Source: an uncultured Bacilli bacterium
GTDB taxonomy: Bacteria > Bacillota_I > Bacilli_A > RF39 > UBA660
Length of the DNA: 64,000 bases
Direction: 5' to 3'
Assembly: GCA_947589515.1 (NCBI GenBank)
Contig: CANQBE010000001.1
Span: 3,800-67,799, forward strand
Below the pieces are notes generated by a model. That model saw nothing but the letters and a program-made list of their open reading frames with translations. It was not told where the DNA came from and did not search any database. Every line of letters begins with the position of its first letter. Within the stretch, counting starts at the first letter, position 1. Shown one piece after another: positions 34,927-46,016 of this stretch. A program made the position numbers and the translations under genes.

Positions 34927-34945
34927 TTAGAAAGTGATTGATCCT

Positions 34946-35848
34946 ATGAAAGATGAGATTAAGCAGTTTATTGAAAGAAGACCTGAAGTAAAAGGGGCTT
35001 ATGGTTATGGTTCTGGTGTATTTAAACAAAGTGGTTATTCTACAACGGATAAACCGCAAATTGATTTAATTTTCGCAATAGATGATTTAAAAAAATGGCA
35101 TTTAGAAAATATGAAATTGAATCCTAAAGATTATTCTTTTATGGGTAAAATATTTTTTAAAAATGCTCCTATTGCCAAACTAAAAGGTACAACAGGGATT
35201 GTATATTTAAGTAATATTTATGAAGATGGCAAAGTTTATAAATATGGAACGATAGAAGAAAAAGATTTGGAAAACTATTTAAATACTTGGGAAAGTTTTT
35301 ATTTACCAGGTAGATTTCAAAAAGCCATTTTGCCAGTGATTGAATCTAAAAAAATTACAGAGGCAAATGAAAAGAATCGTGCAAGTGTATTATTAACTGC
35401 TTTGCTTACTTTGCCAGAAGATAGGCATCAATTAATTGATATCTATACTCAAATTTGTGGCTTATCGTATCTAGGGGATACAAGAATGAAATTTGCGGAA
35501 AACCCTAGAAAAGTTTTAAATATCGTAGAAGGTAGTTTTGATAGTTTAAAAGAAATTTATGGAACAAGTAATCAATATTTCAAAACAAATAAACAGGATG
35601 AAGTTACTATCAATGATAAAAAAATAATGCAAGATATCAATTTATTGCCAGAATATTTAATAAAATATTTAGGTGATGATATCCATAGTAATGATAAAGA
35701 AATCATTAGTATGAAAATTCTTGAATATTTTACAGAATTAAATAAGAAAGAAAGTTCAATGCAGACGATAAAGGGCCTTTATTCAAATGGTTTTACTCGT
35801 TCTATCCAATATGCATCACAGAAAGTGTTAAAGAAGATCAAAAAATAA
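34946..35848 (+). CDS. Tam41/Mmp37-family protein (putative CDP-diacylglycerol synthase-like nucleotidyltransferase)
   Basis: Motifs AYGYGSGVFKQ, DLIFAIDD, KYG, NTWESFYLPGRFQK and GLSYLGDTRM.. closely mirror conserved blocks of eukaryotic TAMM41, recalled from memory. Confidence 0.7.
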   Translation: MKDEIKQFIERRPEVKGAYGYGSGVFKQSGYSTTDKPQIDLIFAIDDLKKWHLENMKLNPKDYSFMGKIFFKNAPIAKLKGTTGIVYLSNIYEDGKVYKYGTIEEKDLENYLNTWESFYLPGRFQKAILPVIESKKITEANEKNRASVLLTALLTLPEDRHQLIDIYTQICGLSYLGDTRMKFAENPRKVLNIVEGSFDSLKEIYGTSNQYFKTNKQDEVTINDKKIMQDINLLPEYLIKYLGDDIHSNDKEIISMKILEYFTELNKKESSMQTIKGLYSNGFTRSIQYASQKVLKKIKK

Positions 35849-35918: not shown

Positions 35919-35972
35919 AAACCCCTAGGAATTTTGACAAGTATATCAAAATATCCATTGGGGTTTTTTATT
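35919..35972 (+). terminator. Long imperfect hairpin terminator ending the housekeeping block
   Basis: Outer stem aaacccc/ggggttt, inner stem attttga/tcaaaat, then a T6 run. Confidence 0.6.
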
Positions 35973-36141: not shown

Positions 36142-36212
36142 ATTTTTCAAAATTTTTATGACATTTCTTACGACATTTCTTGTGACATTTCTTACGACAT
36201 GATATAATTATA
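36142..36212 (+). promoter_or_regulatory. Island promoter copy 1: extended -10 (tgatataat) preceded by three tandem 12-bp repeats gacatttctt(ac/gt)
   Basis: The repeats lie at 36160-36171, 36172-36183 and 36184-36195. The tataat box is at 36203-36208 with TG at 36200-36201. Near-identical to 38970-39016 apart from a 24-bp expansion. Confidence 0.6.
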
Positions 36213-36234: not shown

Positions 36235-37557
36235 ATGGTAGGCGCTGTTGAAGATGTAAGAAATGAATTTAAAATAAAATTAACTGATAAATTTGAAGAA
36301 GAAGTTATAGCATTTTTAAATACTAATGGTGGAAATATTTTCTTAGGTATTGATGATAAAGGAATTATTATTGGTGTTAAAGGAAATATTGATCTACTTC
36401 AAAGAACGATTAAAGATAGAATAAAGAATAATATTATGCCGTCTACTTTAGGGCTTTTTGATGTTGCAGTTTTAGAAAAAGATAATAAAAAATATATAAA
36501 AGTTATTGTTGCTCGTGGAAATGAAAGACCATATTACTTAAAGGGTATGGGAATGACTCCTGATAGTTGCTTTATAAGAGTGGGAAGCTCAATTCAAAGC
36601 ATGCCAAGTGATATGATTAATAATGAATTTAGTAAAAGAACAAGGAATTCTTTAAAAAATATTATATCCCCTAAACAAGATTTATCTTTTAGCCAGTTAA
36701 AGATTTATTATGAAGAAAAAGGATTTTTAATTAATGATAATTTTCTAAATCAATTAGAACTTTATACAGATGATGGAAAATTTAATTATGTGGCTTATCT
36801 ACTTGCTGATAACAATTCTATTTCTATATTATTTGGAAAGTATGAAGGCACTAATTCGGTTAATTTAGTAGAGAATGAAGATTTTGGTAATTGTTCTTTA
36901 ATTAAAGCTACAAAAAATATTTTGAATAAAATAAAACTTGAAAATAAAATTTTTACAAAGATTGAATATCCAGAGAGAAAAGAAATAAAAATGTATGATT
37001 ATGATGCTGTAAGAGAAGCAGTTGTTAATGCTATAGTACACAATGATTGGTCTAATGAATATTCACCTAAATTTGAAATGTTTAGCGATAAACTTGTTAT
37101 ATCATCAAATGGTGGAATTCAAGAAAACACATCTAAAGAAGAATTTTTGCAAGGTTTTTCTTTACCAAAAAATAAAGAATTAATGAAAGTTTTTAGAGAT
37201 TTAGATTTAGTTGAACAAATGGGTACAGGAATTATACGAATATTAGAAAGTTATGATAAAAGTTCTTTTGAATTTTTTCCAAACTTTATTAGAGTAACAT
37301 TTCCATTTAATGAAAATAAATTTAATATAGAAAAACGAGTTTCAGTTAAAACTTTAGAAAATTTAACGAAAATACAAAATTCTATTATTTCCTTAATGTC
37401 AGACTCACCAACTATTACTCAAGATAAACTTGCACGATTATTAGATGTAAACATTAGAACAATTCAAAGAAATATTAAGAATTTAATTGAATTAGGTATT
37501 GTCGAAAGAATTGGGGCAACTAAAAAAGGCGAATGGAAAGTAATAGATAGGCGGTAG
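36235..37557 (+). CDS. Schlafen/AlbA_2 (divergent AAA_4) + HATPase_c_4 + C-terminal wHTH protein (COG2865-like putative regulator/sensor)
   Basis: RBS aggagg. N-terminus reads NEFKIKL..EEVIAFLNTNGGNIFLGIDDKG.IIGV. Middle region has REAVVNAIVHNDW and LVEQMGTGIIRI. C-terminus has ITQDKLARLLDVNIRTIQRNIKNLIELGIVERIG. Confidence 0.8.
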   Translation: MVGAVEDVRNEFKIKLTDKFEEEVIAFLNTNGGNIFLGIDDKGIIIGVKGNIDLLQRTIKDRIKNNIMPSTLGLFDVAVLEKDNKKYIKVIVARGNERPYYLKGMGMTPDSCFIRVGSSIQSMPSDMINNEFSKRTRNSLKNIISPKQDLSFSQLKIYYEEKGFLINDNFLNQLELYTDDGKFNYVAYLLADNNSISILFGKYEGTNSVNLVENEDFGNCSLIKATKNILNKIKLENKIFTKIEYPERKEIKMYDYDAVREAVVNAIVHNDWSNEYSPKFEMFSDKLVISSNGGIQENTSKEEFLQGFSLPKNKELMKVFRDLDLVEQMGTGIIRILESYDKSSFEFFPNFIRVTFPFNENKFNIEKRVSVKTLENLTKIQNSIISLMSDSPTITQDKLARLLDVNIRTIQRNIKNLIELGIVERIGATKKGEWKVIDRR

Positions 37558-37562
37558 GTAAT

Positions 37563-38939
37563 ATGCGTGAAGAAATACTTAAAAAAGTAGATATTTTATA
37601 TACTATGTGGAAACAAGGTAGTCTGGGTGGAGAAATAATGCCAGAAGATGCAAATCCACATTTGGAAAAATCATCATTAGAAAATTATCTATATTTTACT
37701 TTGCCAATGGCACTTAATTATCAAAGAAATTCTTATACTTTATGGGAAAGTGCAAATAAAACATATTATGATGAAGAAACAAGATTTGTTTTTAATCCAA
37801 ATGAAGTTTTAAATAGATCGTTTGAAGAAGTACAATATGCTTTAACAAAATATAAAGTTGCTCTACAAAAGACTAAACAAACGGAAATATGGATAAAATT
37901 GTGCAATACATTTGTAGAATTATTTGATGGAGATATTAGAAATTTATTTGATAAATTAGATAATGATGTTGATAAAATAAGAGATTTTATTCAAAAAGAA
38001 AATAAAACAAAATTTCCATATTTATCGGGTACTAAAATTTGTAATTATTGGCTATATGTTATTTGGCAATATACTGATAGAAAATATAAAAATATTGAAA
38101 ATCTAACTGTAGCTCCTGATACGCATGTCTGTAAAGCTACTTATAGACTAGGATTAATTACAGAAGATGAACTAAACTCAAATAATGTTCAGTTGATTGT
38201 AATAGACAGGTGGAATCAATTATTTAAGGGTACAAAATATAAACCAATTGATATACATACGGCGTTATGGTTATGGAGTAGAAATGGCTTTAAAGAATTA
38301 GATCAAAGTATTTTAGATAATAAAAAAATTAAAAATATAATTAAGAATTCTTATGAAAAAAATAACTATATTGAAAAATTTAGAAAAAGAAATTTATTAC
38401 CTTTTGAAAAAAGCATTTTTGATCAAGTTATAAATTTAATACCAAAACAAGGTAATATTTTAGATTTAGGTTGTGGTAACGGATATCCTTATGATTATTA
38501 TTTTTGTTCAAAAGGATTTAATTTAATAGGCATTGATTTTTGTGAAAAACATATTAAAGAGGCTCGAAAAATAAATCCTAAAGCAAAATATTTTATTAGT
38601 GATATTGAAAATTATGAGATTGATAGTAAATATGATTTAGTATTAATGCTATTTTCTTTACTACATTTACCTAGAGAAAAACATAAGTATATATTAGAAA
38701 GAATTTATAATAGTTTAAATGAAAATGGAATTTTATTGATAACACTTAGAGATGAAGATGCAGGTACTATAAAATATAAAAATGATTTTTGTAATCAAGA
38801 AATGATTTGGAGTTACTATGATTATGAAACTTATATAAAATTGTTAAAAGAAATAGGATTTAAATTAATTTTCAGTGAGAATCAAAATAAATATGGAATA
38901 GAAGAAAGCCATAACTGGGTTATATTACAAAAGAAATAA
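37563..38939 (+). CDS. Fusion protein: endonuclease-III-like (HhH-GPD-like) N-terminal domain + class I SAM-dependent methyltransferase C-terminal domain
   Basis: Residues 151-200, FPYLSGTKICNYWL...VAPDTHVCKATYRLGLI, parallel E. coli Nth LPGVGRKTANVVL...IAVDTHIFRVCNRTQFA, including the Lys and Asp. Residues about 296-400 have motif I ILDLGCGNG and a DLVLMLFSLLHL post-I/II pattern. Confidence 0.6.
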   Translation: MREEILKKVDILYTMWKQGSLGGEIMPEDANPHLEKSSLENYLYFTLPMALNYQRNSYTLWESANKTYYDEETRFVFNPNEVLNRSFEEVQYALTKYKVALQKTKQTEIWIKLCNTFVELFDGDIRNLFDKLDNDVDKIRDFIQKENKTKFPYLSGTKICNYWLYVIWQYTDRKYKNIENLTVAPDTHVCKATYRLGLITEDELNSNNVQLIVIDRWNQLFKGTKYKPIDIHTALWLWSRNGFKELDQSILDNKKIKNIIKNSYEKNNYIEKFRKRNLLPFEKSIFDQVINLIPKQGNILDLGCGNGYPYDYYFCSKGFNLIGIDFCEKHIKEARKINPKAKYFISDIENYEIDSKYDLVLMLFSLLHLPREKHKYILERIYNSLNENGILLITLRDEDAGTIKYKNDFCNQEMIWSYYDYETYIKLLKEIGFKLIFSENQNKYGIEESHNWVILQKK

Positions 38940-39056: not shown

Positions 39057-39803
39057 ATGAATGGCAAAGATAACGAATACGAGTTTGTAAAAAATTTAAA
39101 TAATAAAAAAATTCAAAACTTAAATCCATTATTAAATTCTTTATTAAAATATTTATTTCCAAATGAATCTGAAGATGCAATCATTAAATGTTGGTTAAAC
39201 CATTATCCGCAAAAAACAGATATTTTAATTAAGGTTAATTCTCATATTAAGGGAATAAGCCTTAAAATTGGTAATAAAAATAGTGTTCATGTAGAACCGG
39301 TTACAGAATTTGTTCATTTTTTAACGGAAAATAATGTATCTAACGAAAGCATAATTGAATATTTAAAATATCATTATGCTGATGGAACTACTAATGGAAG
39401 TGGAATACAAAGGATAGGTGTTTTGGATTACAAAAAATGTCATCAACAGGAAATAGATAAAATAAATCAAGAATTAAATAATGTGGAATTATTAAAAAAA
39501 GCTATAAATCGTTTTGTAATACAAGGCAATAATTCTGATTTCAAAATAGATGCTATCGTTTATGGAAGTGTAAATGATTTTTTATGGTTAAGTAAAGAGG
39601 AAATTTTAGAAGTTTTATTAAGAAAACGAAATCATTATTCAACAGGAATTCATTTTAGTAATTTATTTGTTCAACCTCAAAATAGATGTTTAAACTATAA
39701 TAAAAAATATGAAAATACTCGTAATAATGTGCAAATAAAATGGTATGGATTATTTGATGATATTATGGAAAATTTATATTATAAAAATAATAGAAAGGTT
39801 TAA
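39057..39803 (+). CDS. Hypothetical protein; candidate PD-(D/E)xK restriction-endonuclease-like nuclease
   Basis: 248 aa. E7/E9 ... KTD55ILIKV ... GIS68-L-K70 fits a D-x(12)-SxK core, reminiscent of MspI-type KTD...NIK. No other recognisable domain. Confidence 0.45.
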   Translation: MNGKDNEYEFVKNLNNKKIQNLNPLLNSLLKYLFPNESEDAIIKCWLNHYPQKTDILIKVNSHIKGISLKIGNKNSVHVEPVTEFVHFLTENNVSNESIIEYLKYHYADGTTNGSGIQRIGVLDYKKCHQQEIDKINQELNNVELLKKAINRFVIQGNNSDFKIDAIVYGSVNDFLWLSKEEILEVLLRKRNHYSTGIHFSNLFVQPQNRCLNYNKKYENTRNNVQIKWYGLFDDIMENLYYKNNRKV

Positions 39804-42582: not shown

Positions 42583-43083
42583 ATGAATAAAAAAGGATTT
42601 ACGCTGGTAGAATTGTTAGGGGTTATTATTATTTTATCTATTATCATGTTAATTGCGATTCCTAATATTACTTCTATATTAAACAAAAGTAAAAATGATA
42701 CCTATTTAACAGATGCTAGAAAATTAATTACTCAAGCAGAATATTTGATTCGTAGTAGTAAAGTAGATAAACCGGCATCTAACCAACTGCTAAAAATTAC
42801 TTTATCGTATTTAGGTACTAAAGATGTTTCAAAAGATTCTGATGGAAATAGTTATAGTTTAACAGATTCCTATGTTGTTGTTGTTCGTAAAGATGGGTAT
42901 TTAGAGTACTATGTACAATTAGTTGCTACTACAGATAGTGGAAATAAAGGGATTCGTTTAGTTCACGAAGATGAACTACAATCTGATGATAGGATGAATT
43001 TAATCCAAAAAAATATTGTTTCTCCAAGTAATTCACAGATTTATACCATTACAGGAGTAACTGGTACCATTCAACCTTATTAA
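42583..43083 (+). CDS. Type IV pilin-like protein 1 (prepilin-type N-terminal cleavage/methylation domain)
   Basis: MNKKG|FTLVELLGVIIIL has the class III signal, with G at -1, F at +1 and E at +5. RBS aggagg. Confidence 0.85.
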   Translation: MNKKGFTLVELLGVIIILSIIMLIAIPNITSILNKSKNDTYLTDARKLITQAEYLIRSSKVDKPASNQLLKITLSYLGTKDVSKDSDGNSYSLTDSYVVVVRKDGYLEYYVQLVATTDSGNKGIRLVHEDELQSDDRMNLIQKNIVSPSNSQIYTITGVTGTIQPY

Positions 43084-43128
43084 ATAAACTGTAACTTTAC
43101 ATAGATAAAAGTTTTCTAAAAAAAATGA

Positions 43129-43157
43129 TTGCATGAAAATATAGTTAATGATATACT
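43129..43157 (+). promoter_or_regulatory. Sigma-A promoter of pilin-like gene 2
   Basis: ttgcat, 17-nt spacer, tatact, with a TGn extension. Confidence 0.55.
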
Positions 43158-43190
43158 AAGTATGATAAAAATAATAGAGGAGGAATCAAA

Positions 43191-43799
43191 ATGAAATTAA
43201 ATAAAAATAAGAAAGGTTTTACATTAATTGAGTTGCTTGCTGTTATCGTAATTTTAGGTATCTTGTTAGCGTTAGCAGTGCCTGCTGTTACCAAATATAT
43301 TAACTCATCAAAAAAGAGTGCTTTTATTGCCAATGTAAAAAAATATATGGAATCTGTTAATTCAGGATCTATTTCTAGTGAATATGCAAATCCTATTGGA
43401 AATAATGAAGCTACTGCCATTACATTTGATGTTATCTATCCAAAACTAGAAAGAGGTGGAGCAACTTCTCCATATGATGCAGATTGGCTTTTAAAGAAGT
43501 CTTATGTGTTAATTGTAAATGAAGGAACTGCTGAAGAACCACATTATTTACTTTATGTAGCTGCAATGGATGCTAAAGGATATGCAATTGGAAATTATGA
43601 AGCCGCAAGTAAAAAGACAACTGCATCTATCATTGAATACAATAAGTTAAAATCTAGTGACGTTGTACAAATTCCTACAGGAGAAGCTGCTGCTGCTACC
43701 ATGCCAACTGCTGGTGGAACATTACAACTTACAGATGGTACCTCAGTTACTATTACGACTTTAATTGATGATAGCGGTGTACATACAGGTAGTAAATAA
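43191..43799 (+). CDS. Type IV pilin-like protein 2
   Basis: MKLNKNKKG|FTLIELLAVIVIL. Shares the core ..SPY....W...KSYVLIVN.GT....Y..YVAA.D.KGYAI. Confidence 0.85.
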   Translation: MKLNKNKKGFTLIELLAVIVILGILLALAVPAVTKYINSSKKSAFIANVKKYMESVNSGSISSEYANPIGNNEATAITFDVIYPKLERGGATSPYDADWLLKKSYVLIVNEGTAEEPHYLLYVAAMDAKGYAIGNYEAASKKTTASIIEYNKLKSSDVVQIPTGEAAAATMPTAGGTLQLTDGTSVTITTLIDDSGVHTGSK

Positions 43800-43807
43800 A
43801 TAAAATT

Positions 43808-43833
43808 AAGTTGTCATTAGACAACTTTTCTTC
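43808..43833 (+). terminator. Hairpin terminator after pilin-like gene 2
   Basis: Stem aagttgtc/gacaactt followed by a T-rich tail. Confidence 0.6.
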
Positions 43834-43858
43834 TATCTAATTAGTATGAGGTGAAAAA

Positions 43859-44437
43859 GTGAAAAATAGAAAAGGATTTACTTTAATTGAATTATTAGCA
43901 GTTATCGTAATTTTAGCTATTTTACTGGCAATTGCAGTACCAAAAGTTACTCAATATATTACTAATTCCAGAAAAGATAGTTTAATTGCTACAGCTAAAG
44001 AATATGTTGATGCTGTTCGCAAAGATATTACGAGTGAAATTTATGATGCACCTATTGGTACAGAAGATATTACGATTATATCTATTGATTTAATTCAATT
44101 AGAAAAAGGAAAGAAAAAATCTCCATTCAATGGTGCATGGTTACCACAGAGTAGTTATGTAGCTGTTATTAATACAGGTACAGATGAAGTACCTAATATA
44201 CAATATTATGTTGCTATTAAAGATTCTAAAAGATATACAATTCGTTTAATGCAAGATGAAGATATCACTCGAAATTCTATTATTAGAAACAACGTACAAG
44301 GTACAAAAGCAGAGGTTACTCCTGTCTGTGGAGCTGAAGATGGTGAGTATATGGTCATTGATAAAATAGCAGGATTAGAGAAATATCAACCAGCAAGTGG
44401 TTGGAATGCAACTGTTTATAGTTCACAAGGTTGTTAA
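43859..44437 (+). CDS. Type IV pilin-like protein 3 (C-terminal Cys pair)
   Basis: GTG start after the RBS gaggtg. MKNRKG|FTLIELLAVIVIL. A Cys at ..TPVCGAE.. and a terminal ..SSQGC suggest a D-region-type disulfide. Confidence 0.85.
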   Translation: MKNRKGFTLIELLAVIVILAILLAIAVPKVTQYITNSRKDSLIATAKEYVDAVRKDITSEIYDAPIGTEDITIISIDLIQLEKGKKKSPFNGAWLPQSSYVAVINTGTDEVPNIQYYVAIKDSKRYTIRLMQDEDITRNSIIRNNVQGTKAEVTPVCGAEDGEYMVIDKIAGLEKYQPASGWNATVYSSQGC

Positions 44438-44459
44438 AGATTCTACGGAATCTTTTTTC
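44437..44459 (+). terminator. Rho-independent terminator after pilin-like gene 3
   Basis: Stem aaagattc/gaatcttt with loop tacg, followed by a T-run. Confidence 0.75.
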
Positions 44460-44471
44460 TTTTAGTTTTTC

Positions 44472-44500
44472 TTGATAACTCCTTTGGTATATGGTATATT
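44472..44500 (+). promoter_or_regulatory. Sigma-A promoter of pilin-like gene 4
   Basis: ttgata, 17-nt spacer, tatatt. Confidence 0.5.
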
Positions 44501-44521
44501 TATAATAGGATGTGATATAAA

Positions 44522-45133
44522 ATGAAGAATGATAAAAAGGGATTTACTTTAATAGAATTATTAGCTGTTATCGTTATTTTAGGTGTACTATTATCCATTG
44601 CGATACCGAAAGTATCTCAATATATTACCAATACTAAAAAGGATAGTTATATCTCAGAAGGTAAGATTTTTGTAGAGAGTGTTAAAAAAGATGCTACTAG
44701 TGAAATTTATGAATTGCCTATTTTGAATAATGATGTTACGATAGTAACATTTGATGTTGCGAGTTTGGATAAATCTAATGAAAAATCTCCATTTGGTGGT
44801 AAATATATTTTAAATAAAAGTTATGTTGTTATTATCAATGTCGGAACTGGTACGGATCCAGAATATCAATATTATCTTGCTGCTCAGGATAGTAAAAATT
44901 ATGCTATTCCTTTAACTAAAGAAAAAGAATTGGTTGCTAGTAAAATTGTTGCAAATGCTAAAAATAAAATGGAAGTTACTATTCAATCTCTTTGCGGTAC
45001 CGAAGAGGGATATCATAAAGAATATACTGAAATTTCAGGATTAAGTGATGTACAACCTGTAGATGAAGATGGTAATAAGTTAAATTGGAATGCAATTATC
45101 TATAGTAGCGAGGCATGCAATGGTGAACAATAA
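44522..45133 (+). CDS. Type IV pilin-like protein 4 (C-terminal Cys pair)
   Basis: MKNDKKG|FTLIELLAVIVIL. Closest paralogue of gene 3. Cys pair at ..QSLCGTE.. and ..SSEAC... Confidence 0.85.
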   Translation: MKNDKKGFTLIELLAVIVILGVLLSIAIPKVSQYITNTKKDSYISEGKIFVESVKKDATSEIYELPILNNDVTIVTFDVASLDKSNEKSPFGGKYILNKSYVVIINVGTGTDPEYQYYLAAQDSKNYAIPLTKEKELVASKIVANAKNKMEVTIQSLCGTEEGYHKEYTEISGLSDVQPVDEDGNKLNWNAIIYSSEACNGEQ

Positions 45134-46016
45134 ATTATGGATTGGTTCTCATGTTAGTTTTAATAAAAGCGAACAGTTAGTTGCCTCTGTGAATGAGGCA
45201 ATTTCTTATGGAGCAAATACTTTTATGTTTTATACAGGTGCACCTCAAAATACAGTTAGAGCAGAAATTGATGATTTTAAAACCATTGATGCTATGAAAT
45301 TAATGAAAGAAAATGGTATTGATATCTCTAAAGTTATTGTCCATGCTCCTTATATTATTAATCTTGCTAATCGTAAAAATTTAGATTTTGGAATCTCTTT
45401 TTTAAAACAGGAACTGGAAAGATGTGATCAATTAGGAATTAGATTTTTAGTATTACATCCCGGTAGTCATGTAGGATTAGGAATAGAAGAAGGGCTATCT
45501 AGTATTATCGATGGACTTAATGAAGTATTGAAAAGTTACCATGGTAATACCAAAATTTTATTAGAGACCATGGCAGGAAAAGGTTCTGAAATGGGAAGTA
45601 ACTTTTTAGAATTAAAACAGATTATCAATGGTGTTACTTATTCTAATCGTTTAGGAGTCTGTTTAGATACTTGTCATTTAAATGATGCTGGCTATGATTT
45701 ATCTGATTTTGATCAAGTGTTAGAAGAATTTAATCAAATGATTGGATGTGATAAAATCGGATGTATTCATATCAATGATAGTAAAAATGAGAGAGGTTCT
45801 CATAAAGATCGACATGAAAATATTGGTTTTGGTACGATTGGTTTTGAAAATTTAATGAAAATTATCTATCATCCTACATTAGAAAATATTCCTAAGATTT
45901 TGGAGACACCTTATATCAATGGTAATTATCCTCCTTATAAACAAGAAATTGAAATGATTCGTAATCAAAAATTTGACAAGAATCTCCTTGAAAAAATTAT
46001 TTCATTTTACAGTTAA
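45120..46016 (+). CDS. nfo: Endonuclease IV (AP endonuclease Nfo)
   Basis: Motifs HAPYIINL, VLHPGSH, ETMAGKG, CLDTCH and HINDS. The ATG at 45120 overlaps the end of pilin-like gene 4 by 14 nt. Confidence 0.9.
   Translation: MVNNKLWIGSHVSFNKSEQLVASVNEAISYGANTFMFYTGAPQNTVRAEIDDFKTIDAMKLMKENGIDISKVIVHAPYIINLANRKNLDFGISFLKQELERCDQLGIRFLVLHPGSHVGLGIEEGLSSIIDGLNEVLKSYHGNTKILLETMAGKGSEMGSNFLELKQIINGVTYSNRLGVCLDTCHLNDAGYDLSDFDQVLEEFNQMIGCDKIGCIHINDSKNERGSHKDRHENIGFGTIGFENLMKIIYHPTLENIPKILETPYINGNYPPYKQEIEMIRNQKFDKNLLEKIISFYS

Follow-up and report, generated by a model that had tools for sequence, protein, structure and literature searches.

We analysed a 64,000-nt stretch of contig CANQBE010000001.1 from the assembly GCA_947589515.1 of an uncultured Bacilli bacterium (hereafter the window, whose positions are used for all coordinates below), and more precisely one open reading frame (ORF) that joins a helix-hairpin-helix (HhH) glycosylase domain to an S-adenosylmethionine (SAM)-dependent methyltransferase. 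This ORF runs uninterrupted from ATG to stop at 37563..38939 on the + strand and encodes 458 aa plus the stop codon; the strand opposite carries many stop codons. Its ATG lies 5 nt past the stop of the preceding gene, with a plausible GGNGG-type ribosome-binding site just upstream. The first part of the product is an all-alpha N-glycosylase domain of the HhH-GPD superfamily (37563..38300, +, residues 1-246), assigned from an AlphaFold2 model, Foldseek and profile matches. It is followed by a structured helical linker and N-terminal methyltransferase cap (38301..38432, +, residues 247-290), and then by a class I (Rossmann-fold) SAM-dependent methyltransferase domain of the small-molecule type (38433..38936, +, residues 291-458). 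The HhH element (38001..38072, +, residues 147-170) consists of the hairpin FPYLSGT and of the helix K158-ICNYWLYVIWQY; in the AlphaFold2 model, helices 136-146 and 157-170 lie on either side of its loop. The K158 codon (38034..38036, +) occupies the catalytic-Lys position of bifunctional HhH glycosylases, and the D186 codon (38118..38120, +), in the motif APDTH, that of the catalytic Asp of the HhH-GPD motif. Further on come a purine-pocket motif, H232-T-A-L-W236 (38256..38270, +), which aligns to D218-x3-W222 of Pa-AGOG, and the SAM-binding motif I, ILDLGCGNG (38457..38483, +, residues 299-307). The original prediction, made from the letters alone, had placed FPYLSGTK at residues 151-158, APDTH at 184-188 and GCGNG at 303-307 of this ORF, and all three were found there. 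The ORF 37563..38939 encodes a genuine two-domain enzyme, an HhH glycosylase domain with a SAM methyltransferase.

Direct library searches gave nothing for the N-terminal half, which alone has no match in Pfam, NCBIfam, PHROGs, PADLOC or a single-sequence PDB search, and its fold was revealed only by a family profile and a structure model. The HhH-GPD model PF00730, which the prediction had proposed as a check, is not matched by the window protein at E <= 1, and a homologue with 61% identity obtains 13.5 bits, below the cut-off of 26.2. Similarly, the window protein does not match PF09171 (AGOG), for which its relatives reach 17-24 bits against a cut-off of 26.1, and PF10343 (Q_salvage) has no match on the domain. 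On the other hand, a profile built from an alignment of 32 full-length family members, with identities down to 23%, matches Pa-AGOG (1xqo, E 2.1e-5) and B. stearothermophilus endonuclease III (EndoIII; 1p59/1orn, E about 0.006) over the Asp region and the helix after it, the EndoIII alignment extending into the Fe-S Cys region that distant family members possess. The AlphaFold2 model of the N domain (predicted local distance difference test, pLDDT, 94.8; predicted template modelling score, pTM, 0.89) is all-alpha with 15 helices. When this model was compared with the PDB using Foldseek, Qng1/DUF2419 came first (E 5e-4, template modelling (TM) score 0.60-0.65), followed by EndoIII, Tm/Mj OGG, MIG, MagIII, NTHL1, MutY, AGOG, OGG1 and TAG, every match with a probability of about 1.0 being an HhH glycosylase. 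Profile and model together indicate that the N domain is a genuine family of the HhH-GPD superfamily without a Pfam or NCBIfam model.

The conservation of individual residues agrees with this assignment. In the 32-sequence alignment, D186, H188 and W217 are invariant, and M1, P32, T46, R55, L60, W61, D70, W110, F151, P152, G156, K158, W163, G197, L235, W236 and S239 are at least 90% conserved. The profile alignment places D186 on AGOG D172 (PVD172) and on EndoIII D138 (VD138TH). K158 sits at the start of the second HhH helix, where its counterparts are EndoIII K120, AGOG K140 and Qng1 K199, with roles described in PMC3397491 and PMC9881137; it is a putative Schiff-base or sugar-positioning Lys. 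The N-terminal half contains three scattered Cys (114, 160 and 190), without a cluster and with none past 190. Indeed, the EndoIII motif Cys-x6-Cys-x2-Cys-x5-Cys, which holds the [4Fe-4S] cluster, is absent from the window protein and present only in distant members of the family. The HhH-GPD-like nature of the N half, its catalytic Lys and Asp and its lack of a [4Fe-4S] Cys cluster, all predicted originally, are thus borne out. The resemblance to Nth that had been spotted is homology, not chance, because the profile matches, the glycosylase-only structural matches, the invariance of D186 and H188 and the conservation of K158 all say so. EndoIII is nevertheless not the closest relative, since AGOG is closer than Nth by sequence and Qng1 is closest by fold.

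Each of these three known enzymes shares features with the window protein and differs from it. Pa-AGOG (PF09171; 1xqo/1xqp), the best sequence-profile match, has the P-(V/A)-D motif in common with it, a similar Lys-to-Asp spacing (32 residues, versus 28 in the window protein) and likewise no Fe-S cluster. It differs by a weaker fold match (TM 0.44) than that of Qng1, and the first 56 residues of our family contain motifs of its own, MPEDxNP and LNYQR. Moreover, AGOG is archaeal, whereas our family is bacterial and belongs to gut Firmicutes. EndoIII/Nth shares the motifs GxK(T/I)(A/C)N and (A/V)(V/P)DTH and a fold match of TM 0.53-0.64; unlike it, the window protein has no Fe-S cluster, has a longer Lys-to-Asp spacing and an extra N-terminal region, and does not reach PF00730. 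Qng1/DUF2419 (PF10343; PDB 7u07 and others), a queuosine-5'-monophosphate N-glycosidase, is the best structural match, with the HhH fold, retained Lys and Asp and a similar D-x3-W purine pocket; Qng1 and the clade of the window protein are both cluster-less and not basic, and at least five genomes contain the two families as a fusion or as translationally coupled genes. However, the window protein has no sequence-level match to PF10343 or to Qng1 chains, and the beta-hairpins and C-terminal tail that close the DNA cleft of Qng1 (PMC9881137) are absent from the window domain, whose model contains no beta-hairpin according to DSSP. Our family is not a Qng1 orthologue, because the two are distinct proteins or domains wherever both co-occur.

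As predicted, the C-terminal domain is not a DNA-type methyltransferase; it is an intact class I SAM enzyme of the small-molecule type. Residues about 265-458 score above the Pfam gathering thresholds for Methyltransf_25, 23, 11, 12 and 31 and for TehB (48 bits for Methyltransf_25, whose cut-off is 27; E 2e-12), so that, of the Pfam models originally proposed, the methyltransferase ones were matched. All NCBIfam equivalog cut-offs are missed widely, for instance NF008992 (TehB, 39 versus 303 bits) and TIGR00477 (29.8 versus 219.5 bits). In the PDB, sequence matches are of the small-molecule type (MM_2633, BpumL/BamL, phosphoethanolamine N-methyltransferase, UbiG, TehB and CmoA-like). The top 50 structural neighbours found by Foldseek are all small-molecule or tRNA methyltransferases, none being a DNA methyltransferase, and include cg3271/3h2b (TM 0.79), NodS, toxoflavin N-methyltransferase, ChlM, XrdM, METTL6 and Trm9. 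A regular-expression search of the protein for the DNA-methyltransferase motifs [DNS]PP[YFWH], PC[QH] and ENV found none of them. The full-length AlphaFold2 model (pLDDT 92.4, pTM 0.76) shows a seven-stranded Rossmann domain (strands 298-301, 320-325, 342-345, 357-362, 385-396, 401-418 and 433-457) after the helical linker and cap, whose helices span 248-290 with pLDDT 80-97. With TehB-like/Methyltransf_25-type enzymes such as C. glutamicum cg3271 (PDB 3h2b), NodS and toxoflavin N-methyltransferase, the domain has in common its class I fold, its motif I and its compact size (about 200 aa); it differs from them in being covalently joined to a glycosylase and in missing the equivalog cut-offs. 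Stand-alone homologues of the fused methyltransferase exist at 38-86% identity, and one such copy (58%) follows a 100-aa MGMT-type DNA_binding_1 gene. A kinship with the phage preQ1 methyltransferase DpdM was considered and rejected, DpdM being a DUF3109 metalloprotein. We also observed, in L089-L091 (4001-6915; L numbers designate compared loci), a 193-aa methyltransferase, 32% identical to the fused one, whose gene overlaps by 1 nt that of a 777-aa protein with a PLD nuclease and a DEAD/ResIII helicase; this pair adjoins a Wadjet (JetABC) locus and looks like an uncharacterised methyltransferase-nuclease defence pair.

Proteins that carry a "methyltransferase" and an HhH-GPD glycosylase on one chain, like the window protein, are known in the Ada-AlkA and Ogt-AlkA types of fusion. 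Their methyltransferases are, however, suicide alkyl acceptors (MGMT/Ada) and not SAM-dependent Rossmann enzymes, and their AlkA is monofunctional, without the Lys. Our literature searches returned no description of the N-domain family or of an HhH-GPD/SAM-methyltransferase fusion, and Pfam, NCBIfam and PGAP hold no annotation for them. The architecture is uncharacterised in these sources, as had been proposed, and is not a common annotated housekeeping enzyme. What is new is a family inside the known HhH superfamily, in a new architecture, the fold assignment itself being unsurprising.

The glycosylase family is large. We counted 3,903 homologues of the N domain at E <= 1e-3 in a 90%-clustered collection, and 540 clusters among 50% representatives in an exhaustive search. 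The top 120 homologues are 78-96% identical and nearly all stand-alone, of 246-265 aa, unnamed and devoid of Pfam domains. When one genome per species was scanned, at least 279 genomes proved to contain a close relative. Phage collections gave no match to the window domain, and plasmid collections a single haloarchaeal one, for which the PGAP label is "hypothetical protein"; it is carried by a Halalkalicoccus plasmid. In a viral structure library, one strong match was obtained, the "endonuclease III" of halovirus HGTV-1 (TM 0.73/0.79, E 1e-6). Its gene 212 (L098, 6986-7708), a structural member of the family, lies amid metallophosphatase, RNA ligase and DNA ligase genes. A link between this halovirus and 7-deazaguanine DNA cannot be claimed, since preQ1-modified DNA is that of HVTV-1 and the homologue is encoded by HGTV-1.

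We then compared the 80 best loci and others retrieved by protein identity, the neighbourhood set comprising 85 loci. The fusion is intact in 12 assemblies (the window, L003, L005-L009 and L011-L015), as ORFs of 456-473 aa in which LDLGCG is invariant (12/12), and its carriers are metagenome-assembled genomes of uncultured Bacilli/"Tenericutes" from the gut of rabbit, mouse and human. The fusion is not an assembly artefact, because the same ORF is intact in 11 other, independent assemblies. Among the 12 fusions, median ratios of nonsynonymous to synonymous substitution rates (dN/dS) are 0.12 for the N domain, 0.22 for the linker and 0.19 for the methyltransferase, with dS about 0.9-1.1; N domain and methyltransferase are both under purifying selection. 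The idea of a single two-domain polypeptide stands for the fusion itself, which is real, but not for the family, which is usually stand-alone (about 250 aa), the methyltransferase being an optional add-on missing from about 85% of the 85 loci. The closest relative, L016, which has the same upstream gene, is interrupted by a nonsense codon at 259, in L010 a stop occurs at about codon 102, and L004 and L017 keep only a 23-residue frame-shifted linker remnant; L019 reaches its contig end. In a neighbour-joining tree, the fusions form three groups interleaved with solo forms, and therefore the methyltransferase was lost repeatedly. Extensions beyond the stop that tblastn suggested in many solo loci were not retained as methyltransferase remnants, a dedicated search finding remnants only in L004, L016 and L017. 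In conclusion, the system is built around the glycosylase, to which the methyltransferase is an optional addition, lost or broken several times.

Such a history could be that of an incidental fusion, in which two unrelated accessory neighbours were joined by the loss of a stop codon and two independent enzymes now share one chain. The losses and truncations in L004, L016 and L017 and the interleaving of fused and solo forms would agree with it, as would the fact that most family members never have the methyltransferase and that the genes around the family are assorted small accessory ones, among them other methyltransferases that are unrelated (L001). We consider it very unlikely all the same. 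Indeed, in the split pair L085/L086, from a distant genome, an HhH gene of 61% identity is followed after 13 nt by a methyltransferase gene of 51% identity, that is, the same methyltransferase lineage lies beside the same glycosylase lineage. Moreover, the linker is structured, conserved and selected (see dN/dS and pTM above), and at least 12 species-level genomes retain the fusion. The pair, which has a guanylate-kinase-like gene before it and a NUDIX gene after it, fits a scenario in which the two genes were neighbours before fusing. The link between glycosylase and methyltransferase is functional, not accidental, because both occur as adjacent separate genes in this more distant genome. Two other candidates were rejected during this comparison. 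The methyltransferase that follows the solo gene in L001/L002 is not a split version, being a different methyltransferase (27% identity over 112 aa), and the 247-aa gene upstream in L085 is not a paralogue (hhalign probability 0.3%).

A comparison of the purine pocket within the family gives a first indication on the substrate. In the profile alignment, the family segment "...LDLDEPLW...SR" is aligned to "...HLD218TLLW222LAGR" of Pa-AGOG. In AGOG, W222 stacks on the purine, and D218 corresponds to the residues by which OGG1 (Q315) and OGG2 (D194) read the N1 edge (PMC3397491); D298/W302 play the same part in Qng1 (PMC9881137), and Dag1 has a D184/W188 pair (bioRxiv 10.1101/2025.10.29.685425). 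As judged from these alignments, the N domain contains a purine pocket of the AGOG/OGG2/Qng1 type ([D/H]-x3-W), in which the window protein keeps the Trp (W236) but has His232 in place of the Asp. Among family representatives, the position is Asp in 13/14 Fe-S-type members and His in 33/52 cluster-less members, including the window protein. The median isoelectric point (pI) of the domain, a crude proxy for electrostatics, is 8.4 in the Fe-S-type and 6.6 in the cluster-less members (Mann-Whitney p = 0.017). The clade of the window protein has thus lost the Fe-S loop, swapped the base-reading residue and grown less basic. Its basic relatives with an Fe-S cluster and an Asp pocket are probably DNA glycosylases.

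The genomic partners give a second indication. ORFs were called and clustered in the 85 loci, the downstream slot being defined as the same strand at <=40 nt, often with an overlap. There is no universal neighbour, and the commonest neighbour cluster occurs in 16/85 loci. The downstream slot is occupied by Q_salvage/Qng1 in four loci (overlaps of -4 to -26 nt, Pfam E about 1e-42), by Ham1 in five, by an HD phosphohydrolase in four, by a YjjX-type NTPase in four, and by a paralogue with Fe-S Cys in six (L021, L034, L038, L041, L045 and L047; hhalign probability 97.4%). Two of these partners also occur as fusions, Qng1 being fused to the N-domain gene in L071/P0121 (562 aa; L071 7995-9683) and Ham1 in P0128. 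The Q_salvage (Qng1/DUF2419) genes that overlap the stop of the glycosylase gene belong to four species (L026 8744-9685, L031, L055 and L074 4468-5424), and this adjacency, with the Qng1 fusion, may matter for queuosine salvage in gut Firmicutes. The downstream paralogue, of 255 aa, has an EndoIII-like C-terminal Cys cluster and a GYGQK hairpin and is translationally coupled, forming a two-paralogue cassette. Upstream, DHH/DHHA1 (five loci), ASCH and DUF4406 recur, together with a 144-aa protein that resembles a nucleoside deoxyribosyltransferase relative and has no significant Pfam match. Among the 145 neighbour families found within two genes, the commonest Pfam family is NUDIX, followed by HAD, GNAT and HD. 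Distant Fe-S members are fused instead to DUF6884, a YaaA-like putative DNA-lesion binder.

We tentatively favour, at somewhat less than even chances, a reading in which the N domain is a purine N-glycosidase that has shifted from DNA toward non-canonical mononucleotides, and the methyltransferase acts on the released base. The cluster-less clade would have moved, as Qng1 did, to free non-canonical purine (deoxy)nucleoside monophosphates, which would come from nucleotide-pool cleaning or RNA turnover. [quoted passage not shown] Next, the freed base, or a small molecule chemically related to it, would be methylated by the fused methyltransferase, and this methylation would either lock the base in a form that is not re-salvageable or convert it for reuse. 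The fusion would in this case reflect consecutive steps, the usual logic of such architectures. This proposal is favoured because all fusion partners of the clade (methyltransferase, Qng1 and Ham1) are small-molecule enzymes, because the tight operon partners produce or consume nucleoside monophosphates, because the best fold match is Qng1 and because the clade has lost DNA-binding features. It departs from two of the ideas first put forward for the protein. That it would modify and then excise a base finds no support, the structural neighbours of the methyltransferase being small-molecule enzymes and the recurrent partners mononucleotide-processing ones, and that it would act as an effector finds none either, there being no signal peptide or secretion context.

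Several observations weigh against a mononucleotide substrate, and part of them would be explained by conventional base-excision repair. According to this explanation, the N domain would be a bifunctional AGOG/OGG/Nth-like DNA glycosylase and apurinic/apyrimidinic lyase for an oxidised or deaminated purine (8-oxoguanine, hypoxanthine or xanthine), filling the niche of a missing Fpg, Ogg or AlkA in small-genome gut Firmicutes. The methyltransferase would serve housekeeping or detoxification, in a role loosely related to that of the glycosylase or independent of it; its volatile methylated products, or SAM chemistry itself, might for instance create the lesions repaired, by analogy with Vsr-Dcm and Mig-M.MthTI. 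The nearest characterised proteins by sequence are indeed DNA glycosylases, Pa-AGOG and EndoIII, and the family profile does not reach Qng1. K158 occupies the place of the Schiff-base Lys, the hairpin is a canonical HhH one, and the model has none of the beta-hairpin insertions by which Qng1 blocks its DNA cleft. The neighbours from the UDG superfamily (24/85 loci) and the Fe-S HhH paralogue (10 loci) fit DNA repair, as do the EndoIII-like Cys cluster and the DUF6884/YaaA-like lesion-binding fusions of distant members, and the viral homologue lies amid ligase genes. Pool cleaners such as Ham1 and NUDIX classically partner glycosylases, the cooperation of MutT with MutM and MutY being an example. 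A stand-alone methyltransferase homologue adjoins the MGMT/ATL-type DNA_binding_1 protein, and a putative endonuclease IV, a sequence reading without profile confirmation, is encoded 6 kb downstream in the window. Also weighing against the mononucleotide reading are the high variability of the neighbourhoods, whose NUDIX, HAD and GNAT partners are generic small accessory genes, and the methyl acceptor, which is wholly inferred. On the other hand, fusing a DNA enzyme to small-molecule enzymes (the class I methyltransferase, Qng1 and Ham1) has no obvious logic, and the clade has no Fe-S loop, a near-neutral pI and an altered pocket residue. The tight operonic partners are mostly mononucleotide hydrolases, and an identity of about 80% over Bacilli and Clostridia with a patchy, variable location is unusual for a core repair gene. 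Taking both sides together, we regard repair of DNA purine lesions as a real possibility, although a rather unlikely one.

The preferred reading, an N-glycosidase of free purine nucleotides, can be made more specific. The cluster-less clade might represent a second, independent switch of an HhH DNA glycosylase to mononucleotides after that of Qng1, with a purine of the 7-deazaguanine/queuosine family as its substrate and an "excise, then methylate the base" step serving salvage or detoxification in gut bacteria. Such a substrate is conceivable because the clade is repeatedly fused or coupled to Qng1, yet the whole of this scenario is improbable.

A substrate of the same chemical family, but in DNA, is at the centre of a further alternative, that of an antiviral glycosylase. 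The Dag1-Dag14 proteins, which are unannotated, have an HhH fold and a Lys/Asp/Trp active site and destroy DNA that contains 7-deazaguanine (bioRxiv 10.1101/2025.10.29.685425). The fold and the Lys/Asp/Trp residues that they share with the window protein are generic, the likeness being judged from their published description. By analogy, the N domain would excise a modified purine of phages (e.g., 7-deazaguanine), and the methyltransferase would mark self or modify the product, the extreme form being a single-chain "restriction-modification by base excision", possibly with the participation of the neighbouring restriction-endonuclease-like gene. The D/H-x3-W pocket follows the same logic as in Dag, and the family is linked to Qng1, a 7-deazaguanine-specific enzyme. 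Its positions are highly variable, with integrases nearby in 11 loci and RhuM, DUF1016 and PADLOC candidate systems in the vicinity. However, few of the 145 neighbour families match defence models, mainly those of candidate single-gene systems (RhuM and DUF1016 types), and no canonical defence system is enriched among them. The methyltransferase matches the PADLOC model mad2 (E 9.5e-12), and the enzyme 32% identical to it belongs to the PLD-helicase/Wadjet island described above, but it has no DNA-methyltransferase motif and its fold neighbours are small-molecule enzymes. Defence genes normally diversify fast, whereas this family is about 80% identical, with a dN/dS of 0.12.

The immediate neighbours of the fusion gene in the window also bear on this alternative, the gene being placed between a Schlafen/helix-turn-helix (HTH) gene and an ORF resembling a type II restriction endonuclease (REase). 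The upstream gene (36235..37557, +), which is context and not part of the enzyme, encodes a 440-aa Schlafen protein with AlbA_2, HATPase_c_4 and winged-HTH domains according to Pfam, and matches a PHROG "DNA helicase" (E 2e-57). It ends 5 nt before the fusion gene, with which it is probably co-transcribed, and a gene with the same AlbA_2, HATPase_c_4 and winged-HTH domains holds the same position in L016. Downstream, after 117 nt, a 248-aa ORF (39057-39803, +) has no Pfam match but matches the N-terminal half of the PADLOC type II restriction-endonuclease model (E 6.4e-14); gut metagenomes contain 699 homologues of it, unnamed and about 250 aa long. It is adjacent to the glycosylase family in 1/85 loci, the window only, and its homologues in four other loci (L093-L096) have no methyltransferase neighbour, the one in L093 lying 3.5 kb from a Qng1-fused family member. 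A restriction-modification reading that includes this ORF was therefore rejected, since the ORF is not consistently paired with the glycosylase family, no DNA methyltransferase is present and the REase-like family is an orphan in its own right. On balance, we give an antiviral function of the glycosylase a low probability.

Whatever the exact substrate, which is probably an abnormal purine, the N domain defines a large HhH-glycosylase family outside the curated models, unusually conserved in uncultured gut Bacilli and Clostridia, and constitutes a hub to which individual lineages have attached, by coupling or by fusion, Qng1, Ham1, YjjX, HD hydrolases or a SAM methyltransferase. Both the fusion with the methyltransferase and the split pair suggest that the two enzymes have a substrate or product in common. 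If the enzyme acts on nucleotides, it would add an enzyme class to the nucleotide-pool hygiene or modified-base salvage of the microbiome, and would be a second case of a DNA-repair fold re-used on mononucleotides; if, in addition, the second switch concerns 7-deazaguanine or queuosine, it would reveal a previously unrecognised branch of micronutrient or base-analogue metabolism in the microbiome. If it acts on DNA, it would probably be the missing purine-lesion glycosylase of many reduced-genome Firmicutes.

Some other features of the window were noted around the fusion gene. The promoter region of the Schlafen gene (36160-36210) contains three tandem copies of GACATTTCTT(A/G)(C/T) beside a TATAAT box, possibly an operator, and a terminator-like hairpin with a T-run precedes it at about 35920-35970. 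Further upstream, at 34934-35848 (+), a 304-aa protein matches over its full length the "mitochondrial" phosphatidate cytidylyltransferase Tam41/Mmp37 (PF09139, E 1e-61), in a genome that is clearly bacterial (Bacilli). Downstream of the REase-like ORF, four consecutive paralogous genes (42583-45133, +) encode proteins of 166-203 aa whose N-terminus, KGFTL(I/V)ELL, reads as that of putative type IV pilins or pseudopilins. The last of them shares 44 nt with the beginning of a 308-aa ORF (45090-46016), the putative endonuclease IV mentioned above.

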